Shown here: piece by piece, positions 44,171-61,424 of the stretch
How positions within the stretch are numbered: the first letter of the stretch is position 1
How the letters are laid out: each line of letters begins with the position of its first letter
From: an uncultured Acidimicrobiales bacterium
Lineage (GTDB): Bacteria; Actinomycetota; Acidimicrobiia; Acidimicrobiales; SZUA-35
Assembly: GCA_963723995.1 (NCBI GenBank)
Contig: CAVRSZ010000008.1
Coordinates: 462,555 to 526,554, forward strand
DNA length: 64,000 nt
Direction: 5' to 3'
Program-made: the position numbers and the translations under genes
Notes under the pieces: generated by a model
Seen by the model: the letters and a program-made list of their open reading frames with translations, nothing else
Told to the model about the DNA's origin: nothing
Databases searched by the model: none

Positions 44171-44875
44171 GGGAACCACGCTGTTGATGCTGGCGTCGCC
44201 CGGGAAACCGGCCGGTTCGCTCATGATGTCTGGTAGTACCACTGCGGTCTCGGTGGTGTCGGTTTTGCCCGGGTCGATGGTCTGGGCGATGCCGATGGTC
44301 GGGATCCGGAGCTCCTCGATGGTGCCGCCGATGGCGACCCGGCTGAGGTCGGGATCCCCCCGCCACTGGTTCCGGCCCACGGTCCGTTACCGACTTCGCC
44401 CTAACACTCCGACACGAACAGGATGTCGTCGCCGAAGCCCGGGGTGGGGCTGGCCGGCGGGATCGAGTTGCCATCCTCGATCGAGAAGCACGCCACGATC
44501 GGGTCGGGCCTCCATCAGCAGCTCGTAGCCGCATTCCGGTCCGACGGGGTGCCGCTGGCCGGGTCGCTACAACCGTTGTGACGCCCTTGCGCCCAATTGG
44601 TGAAGACTCCAGTTCATCGCGTGGTTTGTTGTTCCATCCTCCCGGGAGCCGGCGGCTGCGATGCCGTCGACCGGTGGAATCGTCGGCCGGGGGATGGGCC
44701 CACTACCGTCGCATTCATGCGACTGGGAATCATACGGGGCCGAAGCAGCTGGACAGGGCCCGGCTTCACCGAGCCCCAAGACCCACGACGCCATGAGGCC
44801 ACGCCTGACCCGGACATGACCATCCTCACCGCACACCGTCGGGCATGACCGTGCCAGCCGACCAAGAAAGGCATC

Positions 44876-45502: not shown

Positions 45503-45588
45503 AGCCGGATGAGGCCCGGCATGCGCCACCGGGCGATCGTGACGAGATCCTCCGAACACCTTTTGGGGAAGGTTGTGAGTCCGAACCG

Positions 45589-46698: not shown

Positions 46699-48757
46699 GG
46701 GCGATCCGATGGCCCTCGTAGACCGCCTCCAGAGCGGTCCGGGGAGCCAGGCTGTCCCCGATGACGGTGACGGCCGGGGCCCCACTAACGGCGGCGAGAC
46801 CGAGGAATACCGGCCTTTCGGCCACGGCAGCGGCCAGATCGCTCACCGCCATCGGGTTGCCGGCGGCGATGACGGCGTCGACCTCGAGCGACTCGACGTT
46901 GCCCGTCGACAGATCCTCGACCGTGAACACCCGATCGACGAAGGACCGGGCCGAACGCAGCGGACGGATACCGACCCGGGCTTCCCTCAACCGGGCGGTC
47001 AGCGCGGTCTTGGAATACACGGTGATCTTCCAGCCGTAACCGGCCACCGGCGTCAGGTAGGTGACCGACACCCCGAGGTCGGCCAGATACTCGACCACGC
47101 TCATCGTCGACCAGTCACCGACCAGGTCGTAGACGGCCACCCGCCGGCCCGGCGACCACGGTCGGCCGAGGGCCTCGGCCAGGGTCAGGCCAACACCACC
47201 GTCGGGGAAGGCCACCGGCTGTGGTCGAGCCCCGGTGGCCACCACCAGGTGATCGGGGGGGCCGTCGAATCGACCACCCGGTATGACGTCGGACAGGAGA
47301 TGCTCGGTGTCGACGGTGGTGTTGAGCCACACGTCCACCCCGTGCCGGTCACACGCCGCGATCTGCTGATCGACCAGGGCCAGGAAGTCGTGGCGTTTGG
47401 GCATGTGCTCCAGTAGCCGCAGTATCCCACCCAGCCGGGGTCCGGCCTCCATCAGGTCGACCCGGTGGCCTCGGGCCGCCGCCACCCATGCCGCCTCCAG
47501 CCCGGCCGGGCCCCCGCCCACCACCAGCACACGTTTCGAGGCGGCCGCCGGGTCGTCGGCCGGGTTGGGGGTCCACGTTCGTTCCCGGCCGACCGTGGGG
47601 TTGACCACACAGGTGATGGGCAGACCCTTTTCCAGGAAGCCGGCGCATCCCTGATTGCAGCCGATGCAGGTCCTCGTCTCGTGAGCTCGTCGGGATCGGG
47701 CTTTGGCCACCAGATCGGGATCGGCAACGTGGGCCCTGGCCATGCCCACCATGTCGACCTCGCCGCCGGCGAGCAATTCCTCGGCCTCGGCCACGGTGCG
47801 GAACTTGCACACGGCCATGACCGGCATGGAGTGGCCGCCGGCTCGAAGACTGCGGGCGATGGCCGGGGCCAGGTGACGGAACATGTCAGCCGGGAACGTC
47901 ATGTCGGCCATCTGGGTCGAGAGGGCGTAGCTGCCGTGGTAGGCCGAGTGGGACACGTTGACGAAGTCGAGATCGACCCGGTCGGCCAGAGCGGGAACGA
48001 TGCGCTCCATGTCGTCCAGGGTCAGACCCCGGTGGGCGTACTCGTCGGCGCTGACCCGCATCCCCAGGCAGACGTCGGGGCCGACCGCGTCGCGCACCGC
48101 GGTCAGAACCTCCACTGCGAACCGCATCCGGTTGGCCTCGCTGCCGCCGTAGCGGTCGGTTCGGGTGTTGGTGGCCGGAGACAGGAACTGCTGCAGTAGG
48201 TGGCCATGACCGACGTGGACCTCCAGCCCGTCAAAGCCGGCGGCCAACACATGCTGGGCGCTGGTGACATGGCCGGCCACCACCTCGGCGACATCGCCCT
48301 CGCTCATGGCATGGGGCGCAGCCGCCGCGGCGTCCCATGCGATTGGTGAGGGGCCCCACGGTGGCAGCCGGAGGGCGTCGCCGTCGATCTGGCGCCCGAG
48401 ATGGATGATCTGTCCGAAGATCCGGGCCCGATGGCGGTGCACCGCTTTGGCGATCCGGGTCAATGGCTCGACGCACCGGGGGTCGTAGGCGGCCAGCCCC
48501 TGGGGTTTGCCGAGGCTGGTGGCGTGGACCCGCAGCGATTCCATGATGATCAGCCCCGCCCCACCCCGGGCCCGGGCCTCGTGGTAGGCGGTGTGGCGAT
48601 CGGTGGGCAGGTTGTCGAGCCCGAAATTGGTGGTGTGGGCGGGCACGAAGATGCGGTTCCTCACGGTCACCGGGCCCAGCCCGATAGGCGTGAAGGCGAT
48701 CGACGTGCTTTCGCCCGAGGAATGACCCGTCGAATCACCCACAGAGTTGACCGTCAT
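46688..48757 (-). CDS. Old-Yellow-Enzyme family NADH:flavin oxidoreductase with Fe-S and FAD/NAD(P) domains (2,4-dienoyl-CoA-reductase-like)
   Basis: N-terminal TIM-barrel motifs (VPAHTTNF, HVGHGHLLQQFLSP), a CIGCNQGCAG cluster motif and VLVVGGGPAGLEAA. Confidence 0.8.
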   Translation of the reverse strand: MTVNSVGDSTGHSSGESTSIAFTPIGLGPVTVRNRIFVPAHTTNFGLDNLPTDRHTAYHEARARGGAGLIIMESLRVHATSLGKPQGLAAYDPRCVEPLTRIAKAVHRHRARIFGQIIHLGRQIDGDALRLPPWGPSPIAWDAAAAAPHAMSEGDVAEVVAGHVTSAQHVLAAGFDGLEVHVGHGHLLQQFLSPATNTRTDRYGGSEANRMRFAVEVLTAVRDAVGPDVCLGMRVSADEYAHRGLTLDDMERIVPALADRVDLDFVNVSHSAYHGSYALSTQMADMTFPADMFRHLAPAIARSLRAGGHSMPVMAVCKFRTVAEAEELLAGGEVDMVGMARAHVADPDLVAKARSRRAHETRTCIGCNQGCAGFLEKGLPITCVVNPTVGRERTWTPNPADDPAAASKRVLVVGGGPAGLEAAWVAAARGHRVDLMEAGPRLGGILRLLEHMPKRHDFLALVDQQIAACDRHGVDVWLNTTVDTEHLLSDVIPGGRFDGPPDHLVVATGARPQPVAFPDGGVGLTLAEALGRPWSPGRRVAVYDLVGDWSTMSVVEYLADLGVSVTYLTPVAGYGWKITVYSKTALTARLREARVGIRPLRSARSFVDRVFTVEDLSTGNVESLEVDAVIAAGNPMAVSDLAAAVAERPVFLGLAAVSGAPAVTVIGDSLAPRTALEAVYEGHRIAREL

Positions 48758-48776
48758 GGCCGACGAGTCTACGGTA

Positions 48777-48863
48777 TTGTCCACATTACGGACAAGAATC
48801 CGCACTGTGGACAGATGTGGACAAACAGTGTGGATAGACAGTGCGGATAGACAGTGCGGACAC
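48777..48863. promoter_or_regulatory. operator-like repeat array in the OYE / IclR divergent intergenic region
   Basis: Three tandem 13-bp repeats ACAGTG(T/C)GGA(T/C)A(G/C) at 48825-48863 and the inverted copy TCCGCACTGT at 48799-48808. A second inverted pair is TTGTCCACAT (48777-48786) / ATGTGGACAA. Confidence 0.6.
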
Positions 48864-48927
48864 GCACCAGGGGCCAACGCGCTGGTATCCGGTGAGGTGT
48901 CTCGACCACGAGGGGAGTTGACAAGGC

Positions 48928-49764
48928 TTGAGCAGGGCCACCGTGACCGACGACGGTCTGGTGCAGTCGGTGACCCGCGCCTTCGACCTGCTCTTCGCCA
49001 TTGCCGAGACCGATCATCCGCCGTCGGCCAGGACGCTGGCCGCCGGACTCGGACTTCCCCGCTCCACTGTGCACCGCATTCTCAACACGTTGGAGGCCTC
49101 GGGCGTCGTCAGCCGTGTCGGCCCCAGCCGGGGCTATGCCGTCACCCCCAAGTTGGTGTTGGCGGCCACCATCAACACCCAGGGGGCGTCGCTGGGGTCC
49201 ATTGCCGATCCCTATCTCCACCGGCTGGTGGCCATGAGCGAGGAGACGGCCAGCATCCACGTCCGCACCGGCGATCATCGAACCTGCGTGGCCGAGATCC
49301 AGGGTCTGCGGGGCATCCGCTGGGTCCGGGGGCCGGGCTGGAGTGCCCCGATGTGGTCGGGCGCGGTGGGCAGGGTGCTGATGGCCGGGATGACCGAGGC
49401 CGAAGTGGACGACTTGCTCGACCGGGCCGAGCTTCAGCCGCTGGCCCGCAATTCGGTGGTGAACGCCACCGACACGCGGCGTCAGGTGGCCCGGGATCGG
49501 AAGCGGGGCTGGAGCGCCAGCGAGAGCGAAACCATCGACGGGGCGGCGGCCGTTGCCGTACCCTTGGTCGATGCCGACGGCGCCACCATCGCCGCCCTCA
49601 GCCTGTATGCCCCCTCGGATCGGCTTGGCCACATGCTGTCGCTGGTCGACGAGGTGAAGATCGTGGCCCAGGAGTTGGGCCGACACTGGATCGCCATTTC
49701 GACCATTCAGACCGGGTTTGCCAGCTCGGCCTCGATGGCCAACGGCCCTCCACCGGCCAACTAG
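48928..49764 (+). CDS. IclR-family transcriptional regulator
   Basis: N-terminal wHTH (LVQSVTRAFDLLFAIAE...ARTLAAGLGLPRSTVHRILNTLE) and a C-terminal IclR effector domain pattern. Confidence 0.8.
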   Translation: MSRATVTDDGLVQSVTRAFDLLFAIAETDHPPSARTLAAGLGLPRSTVHRILNTLEASGVVSRVGPSRGYAVTPKLVLAATINTQGASLGSIADPYLHRLVAMSEETASIHVRTGDHRTCVAEIQGLRGIRWVRGPGWSAPMWSGAVGRVLMAGMTEAEVDDLLDRAELQPLARNSVVNATDTRRQVARDRKRGWSASESETIDGAAAVAVPLVDADGATIAALSLYAPSDRLGHMLSLVDEVKIVAQELGRHWIAISTIQTGFASSASMANGPPPAN

Positions 49765-49901
49765 ATGCGGCCGGACGGCGCCCGTGGCCCGGGGTTTCGG
49801 TGTTCGCCCGAAACCTCCCCGAAACGTGAGACGAGCAGAATGATCCAATCATCTACCAAAACCAGGTGGCGAACCTCGCCACGAACAAAGGAAAGAGACA
49901 C

Positions 49902-50930
49902 ATGAAACTTGGGAGAGTGAAATCAGGGAACGTGGTTCTCTGGCGACTGTTGGCCTTGCTGGCTGCCTTTGCATTGGTCGTAGCCGCCTGCGGCGACGAT
50001 GACGAAGCGGCCGACGAATCCACCGAGGACACCGCGGCCGAGACCGATGCCGGTGCCGAGGAGGAGGCGACCGACGATACCACCGCCGACGAGTCCGAGG
50101 ACATGGCCGAGTCGGACGCCGAGTCGGACACGGAAGCCGATGCCGGCGCCGACGGTGCCCCGGTCGAAGTGCCGGGCCTGGTCGAGGAGGGCAAGCTGAT
50201 CGTGGTGACCACCGGGAACTTCCCGCCGTTCACCGCCATCAACCCCGACACCGGTGAGAACGAGGGCTACACCATCGACATCGCCAAGGAGATCGCGGCC
50301 CGGACCGGGCTGGAACTCGAATTGCCCACCGTTGACTTCGTGGCCGAGCTCGAAGGCCTGTCCCAGGGCCTGTACGACATCGCCGACTCCGGTATCTGGC
50401 CCACCGCCGAGCGCCAGGAGAGCTTCGCCTTCTCCCGGCCCATGACGTCCACCGGTATCATCGCCCAGGTCAGGGCCGAGGACGCCGATTCGGCCGGCCT
50501 CGAGGATCTGACCGGGCTCACCGCCGGTGGCATCCAGGGCAGCTCCCAGGAGGCCTACATCCTGGAGAACGAGGAAGCACTGGGCTACGAAAGCTACTCC
50601 GGGTTCGCCGGTGCCGGTGAGGCGTTGACCGCCCTCAAGCAGGGTCGGGTCGACGCGCTCAGCCAGGACTCGCTGGTGGCCGCCTTTGTCGCCTCCACCG
50701 ATCCCGAGCTGGCCATCGCCGGCCCCACCGTGGCCGCCCACCCCCTGTCGCTGGCCTTCCAGCTGGAGATGGAGGACAAGCGTGACGCCATCGACGTTGT
50801 GTTGAACGAGATGATCGCAGACGGAACCCTGGCCGAGATCCAGAAGACCTGGTTCGGTCAGTGCATCCCGGTTCCCGAAGACAACAACGCCGTCGAGCCG
50901 TACACCGAGCTTCCGGCCGGTGACTGCTGA
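49902..50930 (+). CDS. polar amino-acid ABC transporter substrate-binding lipoprotein
   Basis: Lipobox LVVAAC, an acidic linker, then family-3 SBP motifs (GKLIVVTTGNFPPF..., ..GIQGSSQE..). Confidence 0.75.
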   Translation: MKLGRVKSGNVVLWRLLALLAAFALVVAACGDDDEAADESTEDTAAETDAGAEEEATDDTTADESEDMAESDAESDTEADAGADGAPVEVPGLVEEGKLIVVTTGNFPPFTAINPDTGENEGYTIDIAKEIAARTGLELELPTVDFVAELEGLSQGLYDIADSGIWPTAERQESFAFSRPMTSTGIIAQVRAEDADSAGLEDLTGLTAGGIQGSSQEAYILENEEALGYESYSGFAGAGEALTALKQGRVDALSQDSLVAAFVASTDPELAIAGPTVAAHPLSLAFQLEMEDKRDAIDVVLNEMIADGTLAEIQKTWFGQCIPVPEDNNAVEPYTELPAGDC

Positions 50931-51027
50931 TCCCATCGGAACCTCGCGTCGTACCCGGCGGGCGTCTGCGGACGTCCGCCGGGCCGGGGCGAGCCGGGTC
51001 GCCTAGGGCGGCGGGAGTGCTGTATTC

Positions 51028-51675
51028 ATGAACTGGGACATCGTCTGGAGGTCACGGGCCATCTTCTGGGAGGCGCTGTGGGTCTCGATCCAACTGTTCG
51101 TCATCTCCCTGGTGCTGGCCACCATCATCGGGCTGGTTTTCGCCCTCATGCGGATGTCTCGATTCCGGGCCCTGCGGTGGCTCTCGGCCGCCTACGTGTG
51201 GGTGTTCCGTGGAATGCCGGCCCTTGTCATCCTGTTCTTCGCCTTCTTCTGGCTCGGCAACAGCCTGGGGTGGAGTCCGTTCCAGTCGGCCATCCTGGGG
51301 TTGGCCGCCTCGTCCGGCGCCTACAAGGCCGAGATCATCCGGGCCGGGCTGCTGTCGGTCGATCCCGGGCAATACGAGGCGTCGGAGGCCCTCGGTTTCA
51401 GCCGAGCCCACTACATGCGGCGGATTGTGATCCCCCAGGGCATCCGGGTCATGATCCCCAACTACGTCAGCAACTCCACGCTGTTGTTCAAGTCGACGTC
51501 GCTGGCCGCCGTCATCGGGTTGACCGAGTTGACCGGCCGTTCCCGCCAGCTGGCCAACTCCACCTTCCAGCCCATCGAGATCCTCACCGCCGCCGGGGTC
51601 ATCTATCTGGCGGTGACCTCGCTCATGACCCTGTCCCAGGGCTGGATCGAGCGCCGCTTCGCGGTCAAGGTGTAG
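51028..51675 (+). CDS. amino-acid ABC transporter permease (His/Glu/Gln/Arg/opine family)
   Basis: GAYKAEIIRAGLLSVDPGQYEASEALGFS, an EAA-loop motif. Confidence 0.8.
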   Translation: MNWDIVWRSRAIFWEALWVSIQLFVISLVLATIIGLVFALMRMSRFRALRWLSAAYVWVFRGMPALVILFFAFFWLGNSLGWSPFQSAILGLAASSGAYKAEIIRAGLLSVDPGQYEASEALGFSRAHYMRRIVIPQGIRVMIPNYVSNSTLLFKSTSLAAVIGLTELTGRSRQLANSTFQPIEILTAAGVIYLAVTSLMTLSQGWIERRFAVKV

Positions 51676-51682
51676 GCCGACC

Positions 51683-52339
51683 ATGGATTTCGCCTACATC
51701 GCCGACATTCTGCCCGACATCCTGGAGGGACTGGGGACCACAGTCTCCCTGTTCCTGTGGTCGATCGTTTTCTCCACCATCCTCGGCCTGATGCTGGCGC
51801 TGTTTCGGCTGTCGCCGGTGACGCCGTTCCGATGGTTCGCCGGGTTCTACGCCTGGCTGCTGCGGGGCGTACCCCTGCTGCTGATCATGTTCTACGTGTT
51901 CTTCGCCTTCCCCGAGCTGGGGGAGAGTCTGCTGCTCTCGCCGTACTGGGCTGCGGTGGTCTCGCTGTCGCTGTGGACGGCCAGCTATCAGGCCGAATCG
52001 ATCCGGTCCGGGATACTGTCCGTCGACCACGGCCAGTTCGAGGCGGCCGAAGCCCTGGGCATGAGCCGGGCCCACAGCATGCGCCGGATCGTATTGCCCC
52101 AAAGCGTGCGCATCATCGTGCCGCCGTTCATCGGCAACGCCATCAACACGATGAAGCAGACCTCACTGGCCACCGTCATCACCGTGCCCGAGATGACCCT
52201 GCTCACCCAGCGCATCATCAGCCGGGATTTCAAGGCGCTCGAACCACTGCTGGCCCTGGCCCTCATCTACCTTGCCCTGACCACGCTGCTCGTCTTCGCC
52301 CAGCAGGGGCTGGAGCGGGCATTCCGACTGAAGGTCTGA
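51683..52339 (+). CDS. amino-acid ABC transporter permease (second subunit)
   Basis: ASYQAESIRSGILSVDHGQFEAAEALGMS, an EAA-loop motif. Confidence 0.8.
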   Translation: MDFAYIADILPDILEGLGTTVSLFLWSIVFSTILGLMLALFRLSPVTPFRWFAGFYAWLLRGVPLLLIMFYVFFAFPELGESLLLSPYWAAVVSLSLWTASYQAESIRSGILSVDHGQFEAAEALGMSRAHSMRRIVLPQSVRIIVPPFIGNAINTMKQTSLATVITVPEMTLLTQRIISRDFKALEPLLALALIYLALTTLLVFAQQGLERAFRLKV

Positions 52340-52342
52340 TCT

Positions 52343-53302
52343 ATGGCTGCACTGGTGAACGTCAAAGGATTGCGCAAGTCGTTCGGGGATCTGGAGATCC
52401 TCAACGGCATCGACCTGGATGTCGAGGCCGGGGAGGTGGTGTCGATCATCGGGCCGTCGGGCTCGGGCAAGACCACCATCCTGCGTTGCATCAACCTGCT
52501 GGAGCGCCCTGACGGTGGCCGCATCGAAGTCGACGGGCAGGTGCTGTGCGACGACGGCCCCGGCGGCCGGATCAAATTCGCCTCCAAAGGGGAGATCCGC
52601 AAGATCCGGGAGGAGGTGGGCATGGTGTTCCAGCGCTTCAACCTTTTCCCCCACATGACGGCCCTCGAGAATGTGATCGAGGCCCCGATTGCGGTCAAGG
52701 GAATGGACAAGGCGGCGGCCAAGACCCGAGCCCTCGAGCTGCTGGACTCGGTGGGGTTGTCGCATCGGGCCGACCACTATCCGCTGCAGATGTCGGGTGG
52801 TCAGCAACAGCGGGTGGCCATCGCCCGGGCCCTGGCCATGGACCCCCGGGTCATGCTGTTCGACGAGGTGACCTCGGCCGTCGACCCCGAGCTGGCGGGC
52901 GAGATCCTGCTGGTCATGAAACACCTGGCCGAGCAGGGCATGACCATGATCGTGGTGACCCACGAAATGGGCTTCGCCGCCGACGTGTCCGATCGAGTGT
53001 TGTTCATCGACCATGGTCGAGTGGTGGAGCAGGGCGCAGCCCGACAGGTGCTGGGAGCCCCCCGGGAGGAACGAACCCGGGCCTTCCTCAAGGCCGTGCT
53101 GGAACGGGCCCCGATGGCGTCGGAGGGTGAGGACGATGACCTGGTCGATGACAGGGTGGCCGACGAGGCCACCTGGGCCGCCGATCCGGCCATGGGGTCC
53201 GATTCGTCATCGGAAGCCCTGACCATCGCCCGGCTGGAATCGGAGGTTGCCGAGCTGCGCCGGCGCCTGGGCGAAGCCGAAGGCGCCGGATCAGGGGGAT
53301 GA
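52343..53302 (+). CDS. amino-acid ABC transporter ATP-binding protein with a ~70-aa acidic/coiled C-terminal tail
   Basis: Walker [10 protein letters not shown], signature [15 protein letters not shown] and Walker [12 protein letters not shown]. Confidence 0.85.
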
Positions 53303-54618
53303 CCATGACGACCACGCCCGGTCCCCGGACCATTACCCAGAAGATCATCGCCCGTGCCGCCGGTCGAGATCACGTGATGCCCGACGAGGTGTTGTGGGTC
53401 GACGTCGACCTGGCCATGATGCACGACTCCAGTGGGCCCCGACGGATCTGGCCGGCCATGAACGAACTCGGGGTCGGGGTGTGGGACGCCGACCGCATCG
53501 TTGTGGTCTGCGACCACTACGTGCCGGCCAACACCGTGGCGGCGGCCGAGATCCTGCAGACCACGCGGGATTTCGCCTCGACCTTCGGTATCGAGAAGTT
53601 CCACGAGGCCCAGGGCATTGCCCACACCTTGATGGTGGAGAAGGGCTACGCCCGACCCGGCATGCTCTATGCCGGCTCGGACTCCCACACCTGCACCGCC
53701 GGGGTCATGGGCTGTTTGGCCCTGGGCGTGGGCTCCACCGACATTCTCGGGGTGGTCACCACCGGTCGGACCTGGCTCCGGGTCCCCCACACCATCAAGG
53801 TCGAGGTGAACGGCCGGCTCCGACCCGGGGTCACGGCCAAGGACCTGATCCTGACCATCATCGGTGATCAGGGCATGGACGGCGCTCTCTATCAGGTGCT
53901 GGAGTTCACCGGACCGGGCATCGAGGCCATGAGCATCCAGGAACGCAGCGTGCTCACCAACATGTGCGCCGAGATCGGGGCCAAAACCGGGGTCGTACCG
54001 TCTGATGCCGTCACCGTCGAACATCTGGCCTCACTCGGGGTTGACGCCACCGAGGGCCCGTTCAGCGACCCCGATGCCGAGTACTCGCAGGTCTGGCGGT
54101 ATGACGCCTCGACCATCGAGCCGGTTGTGGCCCGCCCCAACCGCCACGACGATGTGGTCGCCATCGCCGGGTTGGGCGAACCCACCGTGGGCCGGGCCTA
54201 CATCGGGTCGTGCACCGGGGCCAAGTACGAGGATCTGGCCATGGCGGCCCGGGTCCTGCACGGGCGGCAGGTTGCCGACGGGGTGCTGTTGCAGGTCGCG
54301 CCCGCATCCCGGGCCGCACTGCAGCAGGCGATGGCCGACGGCACGGCCCAGACCCTGATGGAGGCCGGGGCCCACATCCTGTCCACCGGCTGTGGCGCCT
54401 GCCCCGGCATCGGGGCCGGCATCCTGGCCGCCGGCGAGGTGGCCATCTCCACCACCAACCGCAACTTCCGAGGCCGAATGGGCAGCCCCGAGTCCAGCCT
54501 GTACCTCGCCTCGCCCTATGCCGTGGCCGCCGCCGCCGTGGCCGGCCGCATCGTCGATCCCCGGGGCTATCTCGACGAACCGGCGTTGGTGTCGGCCGGT
54601 GGGGGAGGAGACCGATGA
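53299..54618 (+). CDS. aconitase-family dehydratase large subunit (LeuC / homoaconitase / dimethylmaleate-hydratase-like)
   Basis: [17 protein letters not shown] and STGCGACPG, the Fe-S cluster Cys motifs. Confidence 0.8.
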
Positions 54619-55241
54619 CCGGATCGGCATCATCGGACCGGCTGGAGGTCCTGTCGGTCACCGGAGCGGGCGCCGGCGGCGGTGGGCCGATCGAGGGCAC
54701 GGCCTGGGTGTTCGGCGACAACATCGACACCGACGTGATCGTGCCCGGCAAGTATCTGGTTCACGACCTGCCCGAGATTGCCAAGCACGTGATGGACGGC
54801 ATTCGCCCCGGGTTCGCCCAGGAGATCTCGCCCGGCGACATCGTGGTCGGAGGTCGCAACTTCGGCAACGGCTCCAGCCGGGAGATGGCGCCCCGGGGGT
54901 TGCAGGCGGCCGGAGTTGGAGCCGTGGTGGCCCGCAGCTTCGCCCGCATCTTCTTCCGCAACTGCATCAATGTCGGGCTGGCCCCGGTCGAGTGTGGCGA
55001 CGCCGACCGCATCGAGGAAGGCCAGCGGCTCTCGATCGACCTGGCCGCCGGGAGGATCACCGTGATCGACACCGGAGAGGTGCTGGACGCGGTGGCTCTG
55101 CCCGAGGAGATCGGTTCCATCCTGGCCGTGGGTGGTATGGAGAACTATCTGGCCGCCACCCTCAAGCCGGGCGGGGGGAAATCGGGTGAGGGGAATGCCG
55201 CCACGATGAAGGCGGCCACGACGAAACGGAGCGGGACATGA
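54615..55241 (+). CDS. aconitase-family dehydratase small subunit (LeuD-like)
   Basis: VFGDNIDTDVIVPGKYL..., GGRNFGNGSSREMAP..., with an ATGA overlap to the large subunit. Confidence 0.8.
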   Translation: MTGSASSDRLEVLSVTGAGAGGGGPIEGTAWVFGDNIDTDVIVPGKYLVHDLPEIAKHVMDGIRPGFAQEISPGDIVVGGRNFGNGSSREMAPRGLQAAGVGAVVARSFARIFFRNCINVGLAPVECGDADRIEEGQRLSIDLAAGRITVIDTGEVLDAVALPEEIGSILAVGGMENYLAATLKPGGGKSGEGNAATMKAATTKRSGT

Positions 55242-56153
55242 CCACCCCGGCCGCCCGACTGCGCCGACTGCTCGACGAGTCGCCCCCGATCGTCGCCCCC
55301 GGTGCCTTCAACGCCCTCTTCGCCCGACTCATCGAGGATCAGGGCTTCCCCGCCGTCTATCTCAGCGGCGCCGGGGTGGCCAACTCGTTGCTCGGTCGGC
55401 CCGATCTCGGCATCGTGACCCAGAGCGAGATGGTGGCGGTCGCGGAGTACGTGTGCGACGCCGTCGACGTACCCGTGATCTGCGACGGCGACACCGGCTA
55501 CGGCGGCGTGCACAACGTGGCCCGCACCATCGGCCTCTACGAGCGGGCCGGGGTGGCCGCCATCCAGCTCGAGGACCAGGCCTTCCCCAAGAAGTGCGGC
55601 CACTTCGAGGGAAAGACGGTGGTCGGTCCGGAGGAGATGGTCCAGCGAATCGTCGCCGCCAGGGACGCCCGCTCCGGTGACGACGGCATCCTGATCATCG
55701 CCCGAACCGACGCCCGGGCCCCGCTCGGTCTCGACGAGGCCATGGATCGGGCTCACCGCTACGCCGAGGCCGGAGCCGACATCCTCTTCGTCGAGGCCCC
55801 GCAGACCACCGACGAGCTGGCCCGTGTCGGCACCGAGCTGGCCGGCCGCCGGCTCATGGCCAACATGGTGGAGTTCGGCAAGACCCCGCTGCTGCCGGCC
55901 GATCGACTGGGGGAGCTGGGTTTCCATCTGCGTGATCTACCCCGGGGCCCTCACCCGGGCGCTGGTCCCGGTTGCCCGCCAGGTGCTGGACGATCTCGGC
56001 CGGGAGGGCTCGACCCTGTCCTGGTTGGAGCGCATGGCCACCTTCCAGGAGGTCAACGACGTGGTCGGCCTGCCCGAGGCCAATCAATGGGAGGCCGACG
56101 TGGCCCGCCGGGCCGCCGACGGTCCACCGACAACACAGGGAGCCGAGCGATGA
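55238..56153 (+). CDS. isocitrate lyase / PEP mutase family lyase (PrpB / dimethylmalate-lyase-like); frame disrupted near 55920-55935
   Basis: VAPGAFNALFARL, ICDGDTGYGG and IQLEDQAFPKKCGHF... are in one frame. The C-terminus VIYPGALTRALVPVARQVLDDL... is in the next frame. The span is 916 nt, not a multiple of 3. Confidence 0.75.
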
Positions 56154-56566
56154 ACAACACGTCAGGGGTGGGTGAACCCGGGGTCAAGGCCATCCTGGGC
56201 TACGACATCGCCGAGGGGGTGTCGGTGGATGAGTACGAGCGGTGGCTGGCCGACGTGCACTTCCCCGATCTGCTGGCCAATCCCCACCTCGACCGCCTGG
56301 TGGCCAACGATGTGGTCCGACCCATCACCGCCACCAGTGCCGGTACCGCTACCGGCGCTGAAGGGGGCGCACCGACCACGTTCTACCGCATCGTGGAACT
56401 GCACTTCGCCGACCACGACGCCTACCGGCGCTACCTCGACTGGTTCGAGGCCAACCCCATCGACCCATCGCGGGGACCGGCCGGTCGCACCGAGTTCCGG
56501 TTCTACGTGTTGACCGACTCGACGGTCATCGACCGTGACCACCCCTACCAACGGCCGGTCGGCTGA
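56150..56566 (+). CDS. small hypothetical protein (138 aa), possibly EthD-like alpha+beta barrel
   Basis: Its ATG overlaps the lyase stop (ATGA). VSVDEYERWLADVHFPDLL...YRIVELHFADHDAYRRYLDW is suggestive only. Confidence 0.4.
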   Translation: MNNTSGVGEPGVKAILGYDIAEGVSVDEYERWLADVHFPDLLANPHLDRLVANDVVRPITATSAGTATGAEGGAPTTFYRIVELHFADHDAYRRYLDWFEANPIDPSRGPAGRTEFRFYVLTDSTVIDRDHPYQRPVG

Positions 56567-56595
56567 CCGGCATCCCGACCCAGCCAAGGAGTGAC

Positions 56596-57270
56596 ATGGA
56601 GTCCTCGGATCTCACCCCCCGCCAGTACTACGAGCACATCAGGGCGAACCCCAATCGAGTCCGCTTCGGGTTCGGGGCCAAGGCGGCGCTGGTCAACATC
56701 GATCTGCAGAACGCCTACACGAAGGTCGGCGAGTTCCCCACCGCCTACGAGACCGACCCCCATCAGCTCGACTATGTGAACCAGCTGGTGGCCGCCACCC
56801 GGGCCCGTGGCTGGCCCGTGGTCTGGACCTACGTGGCCTACATGGAGTCGGGCGAGGACTGCGGGATATGGGGGACCAGGACCGACACCGAGAACTCGCT
56901 GCAGAACATCAAGCGGGGTTCCCGCCGGGCCGAGCTCGACGACCGGCTCGACGTCGACCGGGTTCGAGACGTCATCTACGAAAAGAAGATGCCGTCGCCG
57001 TTCTTCGAAACCCCGCTGCAGAGCCTGCTGGTGTGGCATCAGGTCGACACCGTGATCATGACCGGCGGTTCCACCTCGGGTTGTGTCCGGGCCGGAGTGG
57101 TCGACTCGCTGTCCCGGGGCTACCGGACCATCATCCCCGAGGAGTGCGTGGCCGACAAGCACGAAATTCCCCACTTCGCCAACCTGTGCGACATCTCCCT
57201 CAAGTACGGCGATGTGGTGCCCTTCGCCGAGGTGCTGGACTACCTGCGGACAGGAGGTGACGGTGAGTAG
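56596..57270 (+). CDS. isochorismatase-family cysteine hydrolase (amidase type)
   Basis: AALVNIDLQNAY (Asp), ...KKMPSPFF (Lys) and IMTGGSTSGCVRA (Cys), the catalytic triad pattern. Confidence 0.75.
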   Translation: MESSDLTPRQYYEHIRANPNRVRFGFGAKAALVNIDLQNAYTKVGEFPTAYETDPHQLDYVNQLVAATRARGWPVVWTYVAYMESGEDCGIWGTRTDTENSLQNIKRGSRRAELDDRLDVDRVRDVIYEKKMPSPFFETPLQSLLVWHQVDTVIMTGGSTSGCVRAGVVDSLSRGYRTIIPEECVADKHEIPHFANLCDISLKYGDVVPFAEVLDYLRTGGDGE

Positions 57271-58292
57271 CCCGAGCGAGACTCCGACCAGCGCACCATC
57301 CACCGGCACCGGGCCGACCGTTCCCATGCGGGAACCGTTCTCCGAGCCGTCCGACCCCTGCCTCTACGAGTACTGGCCGTGGGCAGGCCGACCGAAGCTG
57401 ACCTGGCCCGACGGGGCCCGGGTGGCGTTCTGGGTGGCCCCCAACATCGAGTTCTACGAACTCCATCCCCAGCCCAACCCCACCCGCAAGGCCTGGCCCC
57501 GACCCGAGCCCGATGTGTTGAACTACTCGCTGCGGGACTACGGCAACCGCGTCGGCACCATGCGCATGATGGAGGCGATGGACCGTCACGGGGTGCGGGG
57601 CAGCGTGTCGCTCAATGTGGCCGTCTGCCAGCACCACCCGGAGCTGATCGAGGCGTGCCTGGAGCGGGACTGGGAGATCTTCTCCCACGGCATCTACAAC
57701 ACCCACTACTCCTACGGCATGACCGAGGCCCAGGAGCGGGCCGTGATCGAGGACTCGCTGGAGACGGTGGAGCGGGCCACACGGGCAACGAATCGCCGGC
57801 TACCTGGCCCCGGCCCTGACCCACACCGAGCGGACCATGGACCTGCTGGCCGAATACGGCATCCTCTACACCTGCGATCTGTTCTGCGACGACCAGCCCC
57901 AGCCGGTCAACGTGCGCTCCGGTCGGCTCATCTCCATCCCCTACTCGCTGGAGATGAACGACATCATCGTCTACAACGTCAATCAGCAGTCACCACGGCG
58001 CTACGCCGAGATGCTGAAGGCCAACTTCGATCAGCTCTACGCCGATGGGGCCGAGAACGGCACGGTGATGTGCATCCCGCTCCATCCCTACGCCGTCAGC
58101 CGGCCCCACCGCATCGACGCCTTCGAGGAGGCCATCGAGTACATCACCGGCCACGACGACGTCTGGGTCACCACCGGGCGGGAGATCGCCGAGTACTACT
58201 TCGAGCACCACTACGACACGGCGCTGGCCGCCATCGTCGACCACCAGGCCTCTGTTCGGGCCAGGGGTGCCGAGGGCGGGGAGGTGGCATGA
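57263..58292 (+). CDS. polysaccharide-deacetylase/PuuE-like amidohydrolase (paralog 1); frame disrupted near 57775-57795
   Basis: The N-terminal part ...RVAFWVAPNIEFYE...RDYGNRVG...GHGIYNTH is in one frame. GQRIAGYLAPALTHTERTMDLLAEYGILYTCD...IPLHPY... is in the next frame. The start may be ATG 57326. Confidence 0.65.
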
Positions 58293-59254
58293 TGTTGGAA
58301 CCTCACCCCTCCCTGCCCGATTCCTACATGCAGTTCGCCCACCGGGGCTACGGCATGGACCATCGGTGGTACGAGTGGTCGATGCTGCACCAACGGGAGC
58401 CGGTGCGCTGGCCCGACGGGGCCCGGGTTGCGGTGTGGGTGAACGTGGCCCTCGAGTTCTTCCCCCTCGACCAACCGCTCCAGCCGTTCAAGGCGCCCGG
58501 TGGCATGGTCACCCCCTATCCCGATCTGCGACACTACACCTTACGGGACTACGGCAACCGTGTTGGTGTGTTCCGGGTGTTCCGGCTGCTCGATGACCTG
58601 GGCATGAAACCGTCGGTCAGCTTCAACTCGAAGGTGGCCCAACGGTATCCCCGACTCATGGACGAGGTGGTGTCCCGAGGCTGGGAGGTGGTGGCCAACG
58701 GCGTCGACATGGGCCGCCTCCACCACGGCGGGCTCGACACCGACACCGAAGCCGCCATGATCGACGAGTCGTTGAATGTGCTGCGGTCGATGTCGGATCA
58801 GGCGGTGACCGGCTGGCTCTCTCCGGCCCGATCGGAGTCGGGCAACACCCTGGATCTGCTGGCGGCCCGAGGCGTGGACTATGTGTGCGATTGGTACAAC
58901 GACGACATGCCGTTCCCGTTGACCACGGCCAACGGTGTGCTCCACGCCATGCCCCTGAGTCATGAGCTCGACGATCAGACCGTCCAGCTCCACTACCAGC
59001 AGTCGGAGCACTCGTTCGTCGACCAGGTGTCGGACGCCATGGCCGTCGTCCACCGCGAAAGCTCGACCGACGACGGCCGAATCCTGTCACTGACCATCCA
59101 TCCCTGGATGTCGGGTCAACCCCATCGCATCGGCGCCTTGGGCCGGGCATTGGAGAACCTTTCCTCCTATGACGAGGTGTGGATGGCGTCGGGGGCCGAC
59201 ATCCTGGCCGCCTTCACCAACCCGGCAATCGGACACGAAGCAACAGAACGTTGA
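58289..59254 (+). CDS. polysaccharide-deacetylase/PuuE-like amidohydrolase (paralog 2)
   Basis: RVAVWVNVALEFF..., RDYGNRVG..., ...VTGWLSPARSESGNTLDLLAARGVDYVCDW... and TIHPWMSG. It has an ATGA overlap with paralog 1. Confidence 0.7.
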   Translation: MMLEPHPSLPDSYMQFAHRGYGMDHRWYEWSMLHQREPVRWPDGARVAVWVNVALEFFPLDQPLQPFKAPGGMVTPYPDLRHYTLRDYGNRVGVFRVFRLLDDLGMKPSVSFNSKVAQRYPRLMDEVVSRGWEVVANGVDMGRLHHGGLDTDTEAAMIDESLNVLRSMSDQAVTGWLSPARSESGNTLDLLAARGVDYVCDWYNDDMPFPLTTANGVLHAMPLSHELDDQTVQLHYQQSEHSFVDQVSDAMAVVHRESSTDDGRILSLTIHPWMSGQPHRIGALGRALENLSSYDEVWMASGADILAAFTNPAIGHEATER

Positions 59255-59282
59255 CGACTCTGCTGATGGCGAGGACACGACA

Positions 59283-60335
59283 ATGACAACCGCTCCGACC
59301 ATGATTCCGGAAACGCCGGCTGCCTGGATGGGGTCCGACCTGGCCGCCGCCCCCGAGTGTTGGACCCGGCGCTGGACCGGCGACCAGTTGGGCGAGCTCC
59401 TGACCCTGGCCCGTCGCCACCTCGACGACGATCTGACGACGCTCGACCTGGGCAGCGAGGTGCCCGAGACCCTGCGAACGCTGGCCGCCGACATCCGCTC
59501 CGACCTGATCGACGGTTTGGGTTTCACCCTGCTCAAGGGTTACCCGGTAGGTGAGCTCGATCGTCGGCTCGAGGCCGTGGGATTCATGATCCTGGGCCGC
59601 CTGCTCGGCACTCTCCGGTCGCAGAATGCGGCCGGGCACCTGCTGGGCCACGTCAAGGATGTGGGCGGTGATCTCGGTGATCCCGGTACTCGTATCTATC
59701 AGACCAACGAGCGCCAGAGCTTCCACACCGATTCCGTCGACTGTGTCGGGCTGCTGTGTCGGACCACCGCGGTGTCGGGCGGGCGGTCCCAACTGGCAAG
59801 TGCCGAAACCGCCTACCGGATCATGACGGAGCGTCGCCCCGATCTGGCCCCGGCCATGTTCGAGCCCATCGCCACCGATCGGCGGGGCGAGATCCCCGAG
59901 GGCGCCGATCCCTGGTTCGAGATCCCGGTGTTGTCGTGGTACGAAGGGCGCCTCACCGTGCTCTATCAGCGGACCTATATCGCGTCGGCCTCCCGGTTCC
60001 CCGACGCCCCACGACCCACGGCCCGACAGCTCGAAGCCCTCGACGTGTGGGATGAGATCGTCAACGAACCCGAGGTCCACCTGACCATGGATCTGGAGCC
60101 GGGTGACATCCAGTTCGTGTACAACCACGCCCTGCTCCATGATCGAACCGGCTTTGTGGACCATCCCGATCCGGCGAAGCGTCGGCACCTGCTGCGGCTC
60201 TGGGTGTCGCTACCCGGCGACCGTCCACTGCCCGACGTGTTCGCCCAGCGCTATGGCTCGGTGGTGCCCGGTGATCGGGGTGGCATCGTGCTCAGCGAGA
60301 CCCGGCTGTCGGTCCCCCTCGACGTCGACGCCTGA
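59283..60335 (+). CDS. TauD/TfdA-family Fe(II)/2-oxoglutarate dioxygenase
   Basis: FHTDSVD (HxD), ...NHALLHDRTGF (distal His) and RHLLRLW. Confidence 0.75.
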   Translation: MTTAPTMIPETPAAWMGSDLAAAPECWTRRWTGDQLGELLTLARRHLDDDLTTLDLGSEVPETLRTLAADIRSDLIDGLGFTLLKGYPVGELDRRLEAVGFMILGRLLGTLRSQNAAGHLLGHVKDVGGDLGDPGTRIYQTNERQSFHTDSVDCVGLLCRTTAVSGGRSQLASAETAYRIMTERRPDLAPAMFEPIATDRRGEIPEGADPWFEIPVLSWYEGRLTVLYQRTYIASASRFPDAPRPTARQLEALDVWDEIVNEPEVHLTMDLEPGDIQFVYNHALLHDRTGFVDHPDPAKRRHLLRLWVSLPGDRPLPDVFAQRYGSVVPGDRGGIVLSETRLSVPLDVDA

Positions 60336-60353
60336 CCCCCGTCCCTCCGGAGC

Positions 60354-61424
60354 TTGGCTGCCGCGTGGTCGATGATGCACGATGGTGAGGTGATCGCCGA
60401 CGTGCATCGTCACCAGTTCGCCGCCGGGCAGGGCTATTTGAACACCGCAGCGGTCGGTTTGCCCCCACGGCGGGCCATGACCGTCATCCGCCGCCACCTC
60501 GAGGATTGGGAGGCCGGTCGCTGTGACCCGTACGCCTTCGACGCCGACGTCGCTCGGGCCCGGGTCGCCTTCGCCCATCTGGTTGCCTGCCGATCCGACT
60601 GTGTGGCCATCATCACCGCAGTGTCGGTGGCCAGCGGCTTGGTGGCCTCCTCCCTACCCGACGGAGCCCGGGTGTTGTGCGCCGAGGAGGACTTCACCTC
60701 GGTGCTGTTCCCGTTCCTGGTCGACGAGCGGCTCGAGGTCGTCACGGTGCCGCTGGATCGACTGCTCGACTCGGTCGATCACGGCATCGATCTGGTGGCG
60801 GTGAGTGCGGTGCAATCTGCCGACGGCCGGGTGCTCGACCTCGACGCACTGGCCTCGACCTCCGATGAGCACGGGGTGCGGACCTATGTCGACGTCACCC
60901 AGTCCGCAGGCTGGCTGCCCATCGACGCCGAGCGGTTCGATGTCACCGCCTGCGGTGGCTACAAGTGGTTGTGTGCTCCCCGGGGCACCGGCTTCGTGAC
61001 GGTGGCCGATCGCTGCGACTGGCTGGTGCCCCGTCTGGCCGGCTGGTACGCCGGTGATGATCCGTGGGCCTCGATCTACGGTCCACCGCTGCGGCTGGCC
61101 CACGATGCCCGACGGTTCAACCTGTCCCCGCCCTGGTTCGATATCGCCGCCGCCGCCGAATCGTTGGAGATCCTGGCCGGAATCGGGGTTGGTGAAGTGG
61201 GCTGCTACAGCGTGGACCTGGCCAACCGGTTCCGAGCTCACCTCGACCTGCCCCCCGGCAACAGCGCCATCGTGGCCGTCGACACCGACCGTGGTGACCG
61301 CCTGACCGAGGCCGGCATCGCCGCCTCCAGTCGGGCCGGCAGGGTCCGCCTGTCGTTCTATCTCTACAACAGCGAGGACGACGCCGACCGGGCCGCCGAT
61401 GTTCTGGCCGGGCGATGTGGCTAG
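60354..61424 (+). CDS. class V aminotransferase / cysteine-desulfurase-fold PLP enzyme
   Basis: YLNTAAVGLPP..., ...ACGGYKWLCAPRGTGF (PLP-Lys motif); the start is uncertain. Confidence 0.7.
   Translation: MAAAWSMMHDGEVIADVHRHQFAAGQGYLNTAAVGLPPRRAMTVIRRHLEDWEAGRCDPYAFDADVARARVAFAHLVACRSDCVAIITAVSVASGLVASSLPDGARVLCAEEDFTSVLFPFLVDERLEVVTVPLDRLLDSVDHGIDLVAVSAVQSADGRVLDLDALASTSDEHGVRTYVDVTQSAGWLPIDAERFDVTACGGYKWLCAPRGTGFVTVADRCDWLVPRLAGWYAGDDPWASIYGPPLRLAHDARRFNLSPPWFDIAAAAESLEILAGIGVGEVGCYSVDLANRFRAHLDLPPGNSAIVAVDTDRGDRLTEAGIAASSRAGRVRLSFYLYNSEDDADRAADVLAGRCG

Follow-up and report, generated by a model that had tools for sequence, protein, structure and literature searches.

An accessory gene island proposed to break down a small nitrogen-containing ring compound in an uncultured Acidimicrobiales bacterium

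Which compound is taken up and dismantled by a run of genes that joins an ATP-binding cassette (ABC) importer to a two-subunit hydratase, a carbon–carbon lyase and several amide hydrolases? The question is raised by a 64,000-nucleotide stretch of DNA, here called the window (contig CAVRSZ010000008.1 of assembly GCA_963723995.1, positions 462,555 to 526,554), from an uncultured Acidimicrobiales bacterium of the SZUA-35 lineage, in which positions 48928-61424 had been described from the letters alone as an IclR-controlled catabolic island for a nitrogenous, possibly cyclic substrate (hereafter the original prediction). We propose that the relevant unit spans ~38.7-60.3 kb of the window and that, on balance, it probably forms an accessory island devoted to the catabolism of some small anionic compound with a nitrogen-containing ring, the likeliest being a carboxylated cyclic imide or a related amide, with rings of the substituted succinimide, maleimide or glutarimide type as the most likely candidate classes. 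Every pathway step proposed below is based on family membership and gene context.

The core of the cluster consists of an isochorismatase-family amidase, two paralogous NodB-fold proteins here called PDA1 and PDA2, a LeuCD-like hydro-lyase and a lyase. Its gene order is kept in three congeners (G015, G001 and G018), in a contig of a metagenome-assembled genome (MAG; L006) and in 16 marine metagenome contigs, and in the marine Acidimicrobiia the order is constant from the IclR gene to a TauD gene. The core is present in four phyla and recurs in one Caulobacteraceae genome, in eight marine Flavobacteriaceae genomes and on plasmids of Burkholderia plantarii, Acidiphilium multivorum, Sphingomonas sp. 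JE1, Sphingobium sp., Novosphingobium, Neorhizobium and Rhizobium rhizoryzae, with amidase identities of 60-72% across Actinomycetota, Proteobacteria and Bacteroidota; in the databases the amidase has at least 8000 matches at E ≤ 1e-30, many of them from marine metagenomes. This co-conservation is far beyond chance, as the original prediction had required of a genuine cluster. The island was found in 3 of the 24 congeners searched and in 2 of 400 other Actinomycetota genomes sampled across the phylum, both times in the same order, and such rarity within Actinomycetota therefore marks it as an accessory, probably horizontally spread module. The earlier view of a catabolic, N-heterocycle-like pathway is supported.

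How might the ring be opened? PDA1 (57326-58292, + strand) is frame-broken near position 57781 in this genome, and its relationships were read from an intact orthologue, which matches PuuE (Protein Data Bank, PDB, 3cl6; 1.7e-31) and the structure 3s6o (8.5e-28), the latter 91% identical to the cyclic imidase BpIH (PMC11424739). Both HxnM and the Pseudomonas putida imidase have likewise been described as relatives of PuuE and HpPgdA within the same fold family (PMC9304392). In these proteins a conserved Glu and two His, in SHG and LH motifs, replace the Asp-His-His metal triad (motif meaning from PMC11424739 and from our alignment of the PDA1 orthologue with its solved relatives), and seven PDA1 orthologues all keep the corresponding residues, namely the E of NIEFYE, the H of SHG and the H of PLHP. 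Judged by its sequence, PDA1 is thus a member of the PuuE/cyclic-imidase clade of NodB-fold enzymes. In the paralogue PDA2 (58289-59254, + strand), which reaches 128.5 bits on the TIGR03212 PuuE equivalog-domain model and stays below its cut-off of 424.6, the SHG-motif position varies between N, H and S and the LH(P)-motif position between H, T and S. Since PDA2 does not keep the two conserved His residues and always lies beside PDA1 with an overlapping start, it reads as a partner subunit and not as a third hydrolase; it is probably non-catalytic or such a partner, and the three amidohydrolases counted in the original prediction probably come down to two catalysts and one degenerate protein.

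The second of these catalysts is the isochorismatase-family cysteine amidohydrolase at 56596-57270 (+ strand; PF00857, 1.2e-27), a proposed half-amidase. Its matches in the PDB are N-carbamoylsarcosine amidase (1.8e-32) and the maleamate amidohydrolases 4l07 (1e-30) and 3uao (1e-21), at ~35-40% identity as judged by eye, and its triad is intact: the D of NIDL, the K of EKKMPS and the C of TSGCVRA align with 26st, 4l07, 1nba and 3ot4, the C-to-A mutant 4l08 marking the catalytic Cys. The equivalog models RutB, BiuH and PncA all give at most 38 bits against cut-offs of at least 174. The link to maleamate chemistry that had been drawn for this gene is therefore upheld. Maleamate amidase and N-carbamoylsarcosine amidase act on half-amides of the form H2N-CO-X-Y-COO-, and the island enzyme shares their isochorismatase subfamily and the aligned Asp-Lys-Cys triad, as it does with NicF/Ami and with the N-carbamoylsarcosine amidase of the creatinine pathway, whose partner genes differ. 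A cyclic imidase (EC 3.5.2.16) followed by a half-amidase is the pathway of Blastobacter sp. A17p-4, and imidases are known as BpIH from Burkholderia phytofirmans, CIH from P. putida and HxnM from Aspergillus nidulans. The island resembles cyclic-imide catabolism in pairing a PuuE-clade NodB-fold enzyme with an amide hydrolase that would free ammonia from the half-amide, but it differs in having two PuuE-like paralogues, one with degenerate catalytic positions, in using an isochorismatase-family cysteine hydrolase as the half-amidase, and in joining this module to racemases, a flavoprotein, LeuCD and a carbon–carbon lyase; furthermore, no characterised imidase is closely orthologous to PDA1.

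What becomes of the diacid left after loss of the nitrogen is suggested by the three genes upstream of the amidase set, namely a LeuC-like Fe-S hydro-lyase large subunit (53299-54618, + strand; aconitase family, 1.5e-93; NF001614, 501 bits), a LeuD/DmdB-family small subunit (54615-55241, + strand; TIGR02087, 166 bits, above the cut-off) and a lyase of the isocitrate lyase (ICL)/PEP-mutase family (55238-56153, + strand; PEP_mutase PF13714, 1.8e-43) that is frame-broken near 55930. The best solved relative of LeuC is the isopropylmalate/citramalate isomerase of M. jannaschii (3.5e-105). The possibility that these are ordinary leucine-biosynthesis or methylcitrate-cycle genes beside unrelated hydrolases, named in the original prediction as what would overturn it, has in its favour that the best-scoring named matches are to the LeuC and LeuD families and to the PrpB model. 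We nevertheless regard it as scarcely credible and reject it, because all scores lie under the equivalog cut-offs (on the LeuC and LeuD models, 399 bits against 610.65 for TIGR02083, 217 against 560 for TIGR00170 and 158 against 245.85 for TIGR02084, LeuC falling short of the HacA cut-off as well; for the lyase, 252 against 354.4 on the PrpB model TIGR02317, on a truncated reading), because a separate canonical LeuC-like open reading frame (ORF) of 512 amino acids, 36% identical to the island LeuC, lies on contig C3 of the same assembly, and because the cluster is accessory and keeps its hydrolases together with LeuCD and the lyase across four phyla. No prpC/prpD or acnD/prpF families occur among the annotated neighbours.

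The lyase carries the K-(K/R)-C-G-H catalytic loop (FPKKCGHFEGK) that places it in the ICL/PEP-mutase superfamily. Its intact orthologue in G015 matches the petal death protein at 9.7e-63 (215 bits), dimethylmalate lyase at 6.9e-55 and PrpB at no more than 189 bits; since PrpB scores nearly as high as dimethylmalate lyase, the specificity of the lyase is unreadable from similarity. A role in phosphonate metabolism, suggested by the PEP-mutase family, an aconitase-family enzyme and an FrbJ-like dioxygenase, was rejected, as the lyase scores 252 bits with PrpB and 105 with PEP mutase (93 with phosphonopyruvate hydrolase) and the TauD gene is lineage-specific. The fermentation of nicotinate by Eubacterium barkeri employs the dimethylmaleate hydratase DmdAB and the 2,3-dimethylmalate lyase Dml, with nicotinate dehydrogenase, enamidase and a B12 mutase upstream. 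At the level of enzyme families the island repeats this arrangement of a two-subunit LeuCD-type hydratase and an ICL/PEP-mutase-family alkylmalate lyase: its LeuD passes the LeuD/DmdB family cut-off, and the best solved relatives of its lyase are the Aspergillus niger dimethylmalate lyase 3fa3 and the carnation petal death protein 1zlp. Unlike in E. barkeri, nicotinate dehydrogenase, enamidase and the B12 mutase do not lie beside the cluster in the contexts examined, which were drawn from genome contigs, plasmid records and metagenome contigs.

The hydratase-then-lyase logic of the original prediction holds across lineages, in that LeuCD always occurs with an ICL-family lyase or with a CoA-transferase and an HMG-CoA-lyase-like enzyme. 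A family III CoA-transferase and an enzyme of the HMG-CoA-lyase subfamily take the place of the ICL-family lyase in Flavobacteriaceae and Acidiphilium, and on sphingomonad plasmids they occur alongside it. An ICL-family lyase splits a free 2-hydroxy-dicarboxylate between C2 and C3, and a CoA-transferase with an HMG-CoA-lyase-type enzyme performs the equivalent cleavage on the CoA ester, as for citramalyl-CoA; since both routes cleave the C2-C3 bond of a 2-hydroxy-dicarboxylate, the shared intermediate would be a substituted malate. By enzyme type, the flavobacterial, Acidiphilium and sphingomonad versions resemble the citramalate route of Chloroflexus aurantiacus, with its succinyl-CoA:(R)-citramalate CoA-transferase and (R)-citramalyl-CoA lyase, a variant that is absent from this window. 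The specificity loop of the island LeuD reads GKYLVHD (Val-His), most cluster-linked LeuD proteins having Lys in the alignment, and these residues hint at an acidic side chain on the substrate.

Can the ring itself be narrowed further? The evidence here comes from seven genes upstream of the IclR gene, from ~38665 onwards, which by their synteny belong with the island: in G001 and G018 an F420 oxidoreductase, a flavoprotein, two racemases, a SnoaL-like protein, a short-chain dehydrogenase/reductase (SDR), an old yellow enzyme (OYE) homologue and the IclR gene stand directly side by side. The limits of 48928-61424 were thus drawn too narrowly, and the earlier gene inventory missed a flavoprotein desaturase or reductase, the two racemases and the OYE reductase, all of which change the predicted chemistry. 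The flavoprotein (39608-41005, − strand; PF00890, 1.7e-47) is a soluble FAD_binding_2 protein of the fumarate-reductase/urocanate-reductase/TcuA type that reaches 205 bits on the NCBIfam flavocytochrome c model, 149 on TcuA (NF006130, cut-off 369) and 58 on L-aspartate oxidase, with the fumarate reductase flavocytochromes and the urocanate reductase 6t85 as its PDB matches; we propose that it may desaturate a substituted succinate or reduce an enoate. It shares with tricarballylate utilisation, in which TcuA yields cis-aconitate for aconitase, the pairing of a ~460-residue FAD_binding_2 flavoprotein with an aconitase-family hydro-lyase, and differs from it in its score below the TcuA cut-off, in having no TcuB partner and in its nearest solved relatives, the fumarate and urocanate reductases.

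The two Asp/Glu/hydantoin-racemase-family proteins are encoded in tandem at 41062-41853 (+ strand; PF01177, 1e-29) and 41850-42614 (+ strand; PF01177, 2.1e-28), the second being a paralogue with an ATGA-type overlap. The best solved relatives of the first are the allantoin racemase 5lfd (5.7e-14) and the hydantoin racemase 3qvk (1.6e-12), and fold and closest solved relatives together place it among the hydantoin/allantoin-racemase-like proteins; there is no maleate isomerase among the racemase matches at E ≤ 0.001, and no NCBIfam model matches either protein. Homologues of the flavoprotein or the racemases lie inside or at the end of proteobacterial clusters: the flavoprotein is 41-43% identical to FAD_binding_2 flavoproteins of ~455 amino acids inside the Burkholderia and Acidiphilium clusters, racemase 1 is 51% identical to the homologue that ends the Rhizobiaceae clusters, a racemase-family gene of plasmid pJE1 matches the tandem genes at 41062-42614, and racemase 2 is 87-88% identical to its counterparts in G001 and G018. 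In Neorhizobium sp. SOG26 and Rhizobium rhizoryzae the order is CMD, then amidase-PDA1-PDA2-LeuC-LeuD-LivK-type ABC-lyase-flavoprotein-racemase. A supposed minimal Neorhizobium cluster lacking any redox enzyme was rejected on finding the flavoprotein and racemase just downstream of the lyase, and three Neorhizobium ORFs first taken for a molybdenum hydroxylase proved to be chemotaxis genes. With the flavoprotein, the two racemases and the OYE belonging to the cluster, the chemistry narrows to a chiral ring processed by way of a substituted succinate/maleate pair.

The same racemases also feed a different account, in which the substrate would be a 5-substituted hydantoin or a dihydropyrimidine-type ureide: the racemases would racemise it, PDA1 would act as a hydantoinase, the amidase would be an N-carbamoyl-amino-acid amidohydrolase releasing CO2 and ammonia, and the acidic branched amino acid so formed would be converted to a substituted malate and cleaved. 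The only solved relatives of the racemases are indeed allantoin and hydantoin racemases, the top solved match of PDA1 is the allantoinase PuuE, that of the amidase is N-carbamoylsarcosine amidase, and ATP-dependent hydantoinase A/B genes adjoin the cluster in a Caulobacteraceae genome and in Salipiger, where the amidase-PDA1-PDA2 triad stands with a further amidase and hydantoinase A/B. However, no conserved aminotransferase, ammonia-lyase or amino-acid oxidase is available for removal of the alpha-amino group, the flavoprotein lies much nearer to the fumarate and urocanate reductases and TcuA (205 and 149 bits) than to L-aspartate oxidase (58), and LeuCD and the lyase are left without an obvious substrate once an ordinary amino acid has been released; we therefore judge a ureide or hydantoin substrate unlikely, if worth keeping in view.

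A lower pathway for pyridines of the nicotinate, picolinate or hydroxypyridine type, in which PDA would deformylate an N-formylmaleamate-type ring-cleavage product, a NicF-like maleamate amidase would follow, LeuCD would serve as maleate hydratase and the lyase would split a D-malate-type acid, strikes us as very improbable. NodB-fold enzymes are de-N-acylases, the maleamate amidohydrolases 4l07 and 3uao are among the matches of the amidase, and annotation by the Joint Genome Institute labels many homologues as maleamate amidohydrolase, all of which speaks for this scheme; yet neither a ring-cleaving dioxygenase of the NicX/Hpo type nor a nicotinate-type hydroxylase occurs in the ~20 contexts examined, and the racemases and flavoprotein would be left without a role.

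Returning to the cyclic-imide reading, we propose the following sequence of events. An IclR-type regulator would control divergent promoters, and an importer of the polar-amino-acid type would bring the compound in; a FadH/OYE-type flavoprotein, TauD, the F420 oxidoreductase and the SDR could then trim related rings to a hydrolysable one, whose stereoisomers the two hydantoin/allantoin-racemase-like enzymes would interconvert. PDA1, probably in complex with its degenerate paralogue PDA2, would open the ring to a half-amide, from which the isochorismatase-family hydrolase would free the amide nitrogen as ammonia, leaving a substituted succinate or maleate. The fumarate-reductase/TcuA-like flavoprotein would interconvert the saturated and unsaturated diacids, LeuCD would hydrate the cis-unsaturated form to a substituted malate, and the ICL-family lyase would split this into a 2-oxo acid of the pyruvate or glyoxylate type and a second carboxylic acid. 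It is also important to note that the transporters associated with the cluster in other lineages are organic-anion carriers (AAHS and ACS members of the major facilitator superfamily, BASS, TTT and LivK-type ABC systems), and the ring therefore probably bears a carboxylate.

Each enzyme type in this scheme is already known, and there is no characterised pathway of this composition; literature searches on the host plasmids, the structure 7n7v, the gene combination and the imidase/half-amidase pairing returned nothing useful. By enzyme type, the scheme has a parallel in the lower half of the nicotinate (hxn) pathway of A. nidulans, with its OYE-type ene-reductase, SDR, cyclic imidase, amidase and 2-oxoglutarate dioxygenase (PMC9304392), the role of the dioxygenase being unassigned in the fungus and the product being 2-hydroxyglutarate (PMC9304392). 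Unlike in the island, no LeuCD or lyase follows in the fungus, and the OYE here is a long FadH-type Fe-S flavoprotein.

A more specific version of this scheme, which we put forward as an improbable yet concrete idea, would make the island a pathway for the monopyrrolic imides that arise from oxidative destruction of chlorophyll, haem and bilins. Its substrates would be hematinic acid and the saturated form derived from a reduced ring D, perhaps together with methyl-ethyl- or methyl-vinyl-maleimide. Epimerisation of the saturated imide at both of its ring carbons would fall to the racemases, and release of the nitrogen to PDA1/PDA2 and the amidase; the double bond would be put back by the flavoprotein, after which LeuCD would hydrate methyl-(carboxyethyl)maleate and a lyase like PrpB or the petal death protein would yield pyruvate and glutarate. 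Several features fit and none is decisive: the organic-anion transporters and the Lys or His in the LeuD loop; the CoA-transferase of the succinate-glutarate type, acyl-CoA dehydrogenase and electron-transfer flavoprotein (ETF) downstream in B. plantarii; and the carriers themselves, which are marine Flavobacteriaceae, marine Acidimicrobiia and plant-associated Proteobacteria. Monopyrrolic imides occur in plants and herbivores (PMC7318184), and no bacterial genes for them were found in the literature searched.

Several observations weigh against a carboxylated cyclic imide as the substrate. The cluster members are uncharacterised and the identity of the substrate is left at the level of a class. 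The combination of hydantoin/allantoin-like racemases with an amidase that resembles an N-carbamoyl-amino-acid amidase no less than a maleamate amidase makes a ureide or hydantoin ring possible. The closest solved relatives of the flavoprotein are reductases, which bears on the direction proposed for its reaction, and the flavobacterial clusters have neither flavoprotein nor racemase within 10 kb. A Comamonas plasmid carries the amidase-PDA1-PDA2 triad without LeuCD and has instead an acyl-CoA ligase, an acyl-CoA dehydrogenase, an alpha/beta hydrolase and an Amidohydro_2 protein, so that the triad may serve several pathways. The roles given to the OYE, TauD, F420 enzyme, SDR, SnoaL and EthD-like proteins are guesses. 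Finally, two core genes are frame-broken, and the island may do nothing in this genome.

Is the island then intact in its host? The 14 co-directional + strand genes described for 48928-61424 are all present, as confirmed by ORF listing, three-frame translation and Pfam and NCBIfam scans, which also agree with the gene families assigned earlier, and five ATGA overlaps can be read directly from the sequence (ATPase/LeuC, LeuC/LeuD, LeuD/lyase, lyase/small gene and PDA1/PDA2); the lyase and PDA1, however, are not intact ORFs, a point on which the original prediction was silent. In the lyase the frame changes at ~55930, residues 1-229 lying in one frame up to ...LGELGF and the last 74 in another, from ...VIYPGALTRA..., and in PDA1 the change falls at ~57781, between ...LETVERAT and ...GQRIAGYLAP... 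in a different frame. Alignment with G015, the nearest congener (96-98% protein identity for the broken genes), reads CATCTGCGTG against CATCT-CGTG in the lyase and GCCACACGGG against GCCAC-CGGG in PDA1, that is, a one-base insertion in each, both outside homopolymers, the extra bases being a G and an A. The long ORFs at 55238-56566 and 57083-59254 are read-through artefacts of high-GC DNA. Both genes are single-frame in G015, G001, G018 and the MAG contig L006, and they are intact in all metagenome loci compared (11 of 11 for the lyase, 15 of 15 for PDA1); programmed frameshifting was rejected, the breaks being absent from all orthologues.

The host island is thus either freshly inactivated or mis-assembled at both points. 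That both insertions are real mutations and that the pathway is a decaying, non-functional remnant in this strain is a serious possibility, to which we give somewhat less than even weight. It is favoured by the nature of the breaks, both of them insertions relative to G015 and neither in a homopolymer, by the intactness of every other orthologue examined, by the lack of a second copy of either gene in the host assembly and by the patchiness of the island within the genus. A detector based on the phase of third-codon-position GC content, run over the whole 5.8-Mb assembly, flags 52 ORFs in which the correct codon phase gives way to a shifted one on the same strand, or one per 111 kb, the lyase and PDA1 among them; two such breaks within 2 kb amount to ~20-fold more than the genome average predicts for a 12.5-kb island, and this density leans towards real decay. 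On the other side stand an assembly in 8 contigs, the otherwise undamaged state of the two genes at their high identity to G015, and the fact that the detector is a conservative lower bound, so that the true error rate may be higher. The flagged ORFs are unevenly distributed over the contigs (23 on C1, 12 on C8, 7 on C7, 6 on C3, 3 on C2 and 1 on C4). At the 3′ end of PDA2 (59205-59250), comparison with G015 shows a one-base insertion followed 24 nucleotides later by a one-base deletion, a compensated pair that recodes ~8 residues, and a PDA1 orthologue in a complete genome of the same order (L189; G150:C1:4305735-4306673) contains one in-frame TGA inside the match.

The remaining genes of the island are mainly concerned with regulation, uptake and what may be peripheral conversions, and none of the enzymes of 48928-61424 reaches an NCBIfam equivalog cut-off. 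The IclR-family regulator (48928-49764, + strand; HTH_IclR and IclR_C) is 68-80% identical to its counterparts in orthologous clusters, and its control of the island is something we infer from position only; a scan for promoters and terminators gave nothing above chance. Behind it lie a family 3 solute-binding protein of the polar amino-acid type (49866-50930, + strand; SBP_bac_3 PF00497, 3.6e-27, no NCBIfam equivalog), two permeases (51028-51675 and 51683-52339, + strand; BPD_transp_1 PF00528) and an ATPase (52343-53302, + strand; PF00005). The ATPase falls just short on the EhuA model (343.3 bits against 345.4) and the solute-binding protein far short on EhuB (35.5 against 190.9), so that the system does not qualify as an Ehu importer for ectoine or hydroxyectoine. 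Between its signal/lipobox region and its binding domain the solute-binding protein has an acidic linker of ~90 residues rich in Asp, Glu, Thr and Ala, and beyond its ABC domain the ATPase carries a C-terminal extension of ~65 residues that is acidic and partly coiled.

Upstream and divergent from the IclR gene, the FadH/OYE-type Fe-S flavoprotein with its FMN and FAD/NAD(P) domains (46688-48877, − strand; PF00724, 3.8e-66, and Pyr_redox_2) scores 561 bits on the mycofactocin-system FadH/OYE model, 320 on BaiCD and 235 on bilirubin reductase, all below the cut-offs; an OYE lies beside the island in G001, G018 and the metagenome locus L127, and on an Armatimonadota contig two OYE homologues flank a LeuCD-lyase-amidase set. 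The SDR, of the NAD-dependent epimerase/dehydratase family (45589-46785, − strand; PF01370, 1.1e-49), adjoins the OYE gene in G001 and G018. At the other end of the block, the F420-dependent LLM-class oxidoreductase (38665-39744, − strand; Pfam Bac_luciferase) scores 289 bits on TIGR03620, above the cut-off of 219.8, and is syntenic in G001 and G018; since its ORF overlaps the next gene, its true start is probably downstream of the ORF start. The SnoaL/NTF2-like small protein (42574-43035, + strand; SnoaL_2 PF12680, 1e-6; DUF4440, 4.6e-4) is a possible isomerase, and flavobacterial clusters have a DUF4440 protein at the equivalent position. Between the lyase and the amidase, the small protein at 56150-56566 (+ strand) has no Pfam or NCBIfam match, is kept at the same position in all Acidimicrobiia loci and possibly adopts an EthD-like dimeric alpha/beta-barrel fold, its neighbours in a language-model atlas being of the EthD, HapK and ABM type at scores of 0.90-0.91, which serve as a lead only. 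The OYE, TauD, F420, SDR, SnoaL and EthD-like proteins are lineage-specific and would probably adapt related compounds.

At the downstream end, the TauD-family Fe(II)/2-oxoglutarate dioxygenase (59283-60335, + strand; PF02668, 1.3e-26) has FrbJ 5eqn and 7n7v as its best solved relatives (~1e-39), and by our own motif reading its H-x-D ... H iron triad lies in FHTDSVD and in ALLHDR near the C terminus. Orthologues of at least 64% identity stand 3′ of PDA2 in those marine contigs long enough to tell, with the exception of L114, and conservation of the gene is confined to the cluster as it occurs in marine Acidimicrobiia; its earlier inclusion in the island holds for that form and not beyond it. 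The class V-fold enzyme dependent on pyridoxal phosphate (PLP) that ends the 14-gene run (60354-61424, + strand; Aminotran_5 PF00266, 1.2e-14; weak matches to cysteine desulfurase and EgtE) follows TauD in the host and in G015 only, is replaced by an M14 carboxypeptidase in G001 and G018 and appears in no metagenome locus examined; it therefore falls outside the conserved set, and its membership, assumed in the original prediction, is doubtful. A sulfur-containing substrate, for which a rhodanese in Croceitalea, a sulfurtransferase and MetC in Salipiger and this PLP gene might have spoken, was rejected, none of these being conserved (the rhodanese is missing in Maribacter, locus L032).

Two further stretches border on or interrupt the island. 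The ~2.5 kb at 43056-45559, between the SnoaL and SDR genes of the host, holds a gene of 296 amino acids, apparent debris and an ORF of 330 amino acids, neither of the two having a Pfam match; in G001 and G018, where this stretch is absent, the distance from SnoaL to SDR is ~1 kb, and the stretch has the look of DNA inserted into the island. A gene of the tannase/feruloyl-esterase family (36371-38005; PF07519, 5e-113) lies immediately upstream of the F420 oxidoreductase; it is syntenic in G018 (81% identity), was not seen in the stretch fetched from G001 and may or may not belong to the island.

Clusters in other lineages carry companions of their own. One set of companions was noted from loci L097 (pJE1), L102, L105, L106, L010 and L033. 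On the sphingomonad plasmids the core stands with genes for a DUF3108 protein, an alpha/beta hydrolase, a VOC protein of two domains, a ChrR-type cupin and a hypothetical protein; in the Caulobacteraceae genome, too, PDA2 is followed by DUF3108 homologues, and the flavobacterial locus contains a protein with weak similarity to DUF3108. On plasmid p1 of Burkholderia plantarii (L188/L095) the stretch past the lyase, bounded by IS481 and IS6 elements, encodes a porin, ETF beta and alpha, an acyl-CoA dehydrogenase and a CoA-transferase that reaches 542 bits on the succinate-glutarate CoA-transferase model (cut-off 750). In Thioclava, Terrarubrum and Neorhizobium galegae (L098, L101 and L107), amidase homologues of 54-60% identity belong to a different conserved cluster that has no PDA genes and comprises an HpaB-like monooxygenase, a leucyl-aminopeptidase-like protein, amidases, RidA, a flavin reductase and an ABC importer.

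Taken together, a highly conserved gene core that is carried on catabolic plasmids and in marine bacteria is still without an assigned substrate. The case also calls for caution in annotation, as gene calling would wrongly render the two frame-broken core genes of this genome as long fused ORFs. Were the substrate named, thousands of genes could be annotated together, and a further route for the return of ring nitrogen to ammonia in sea and soil would be added.

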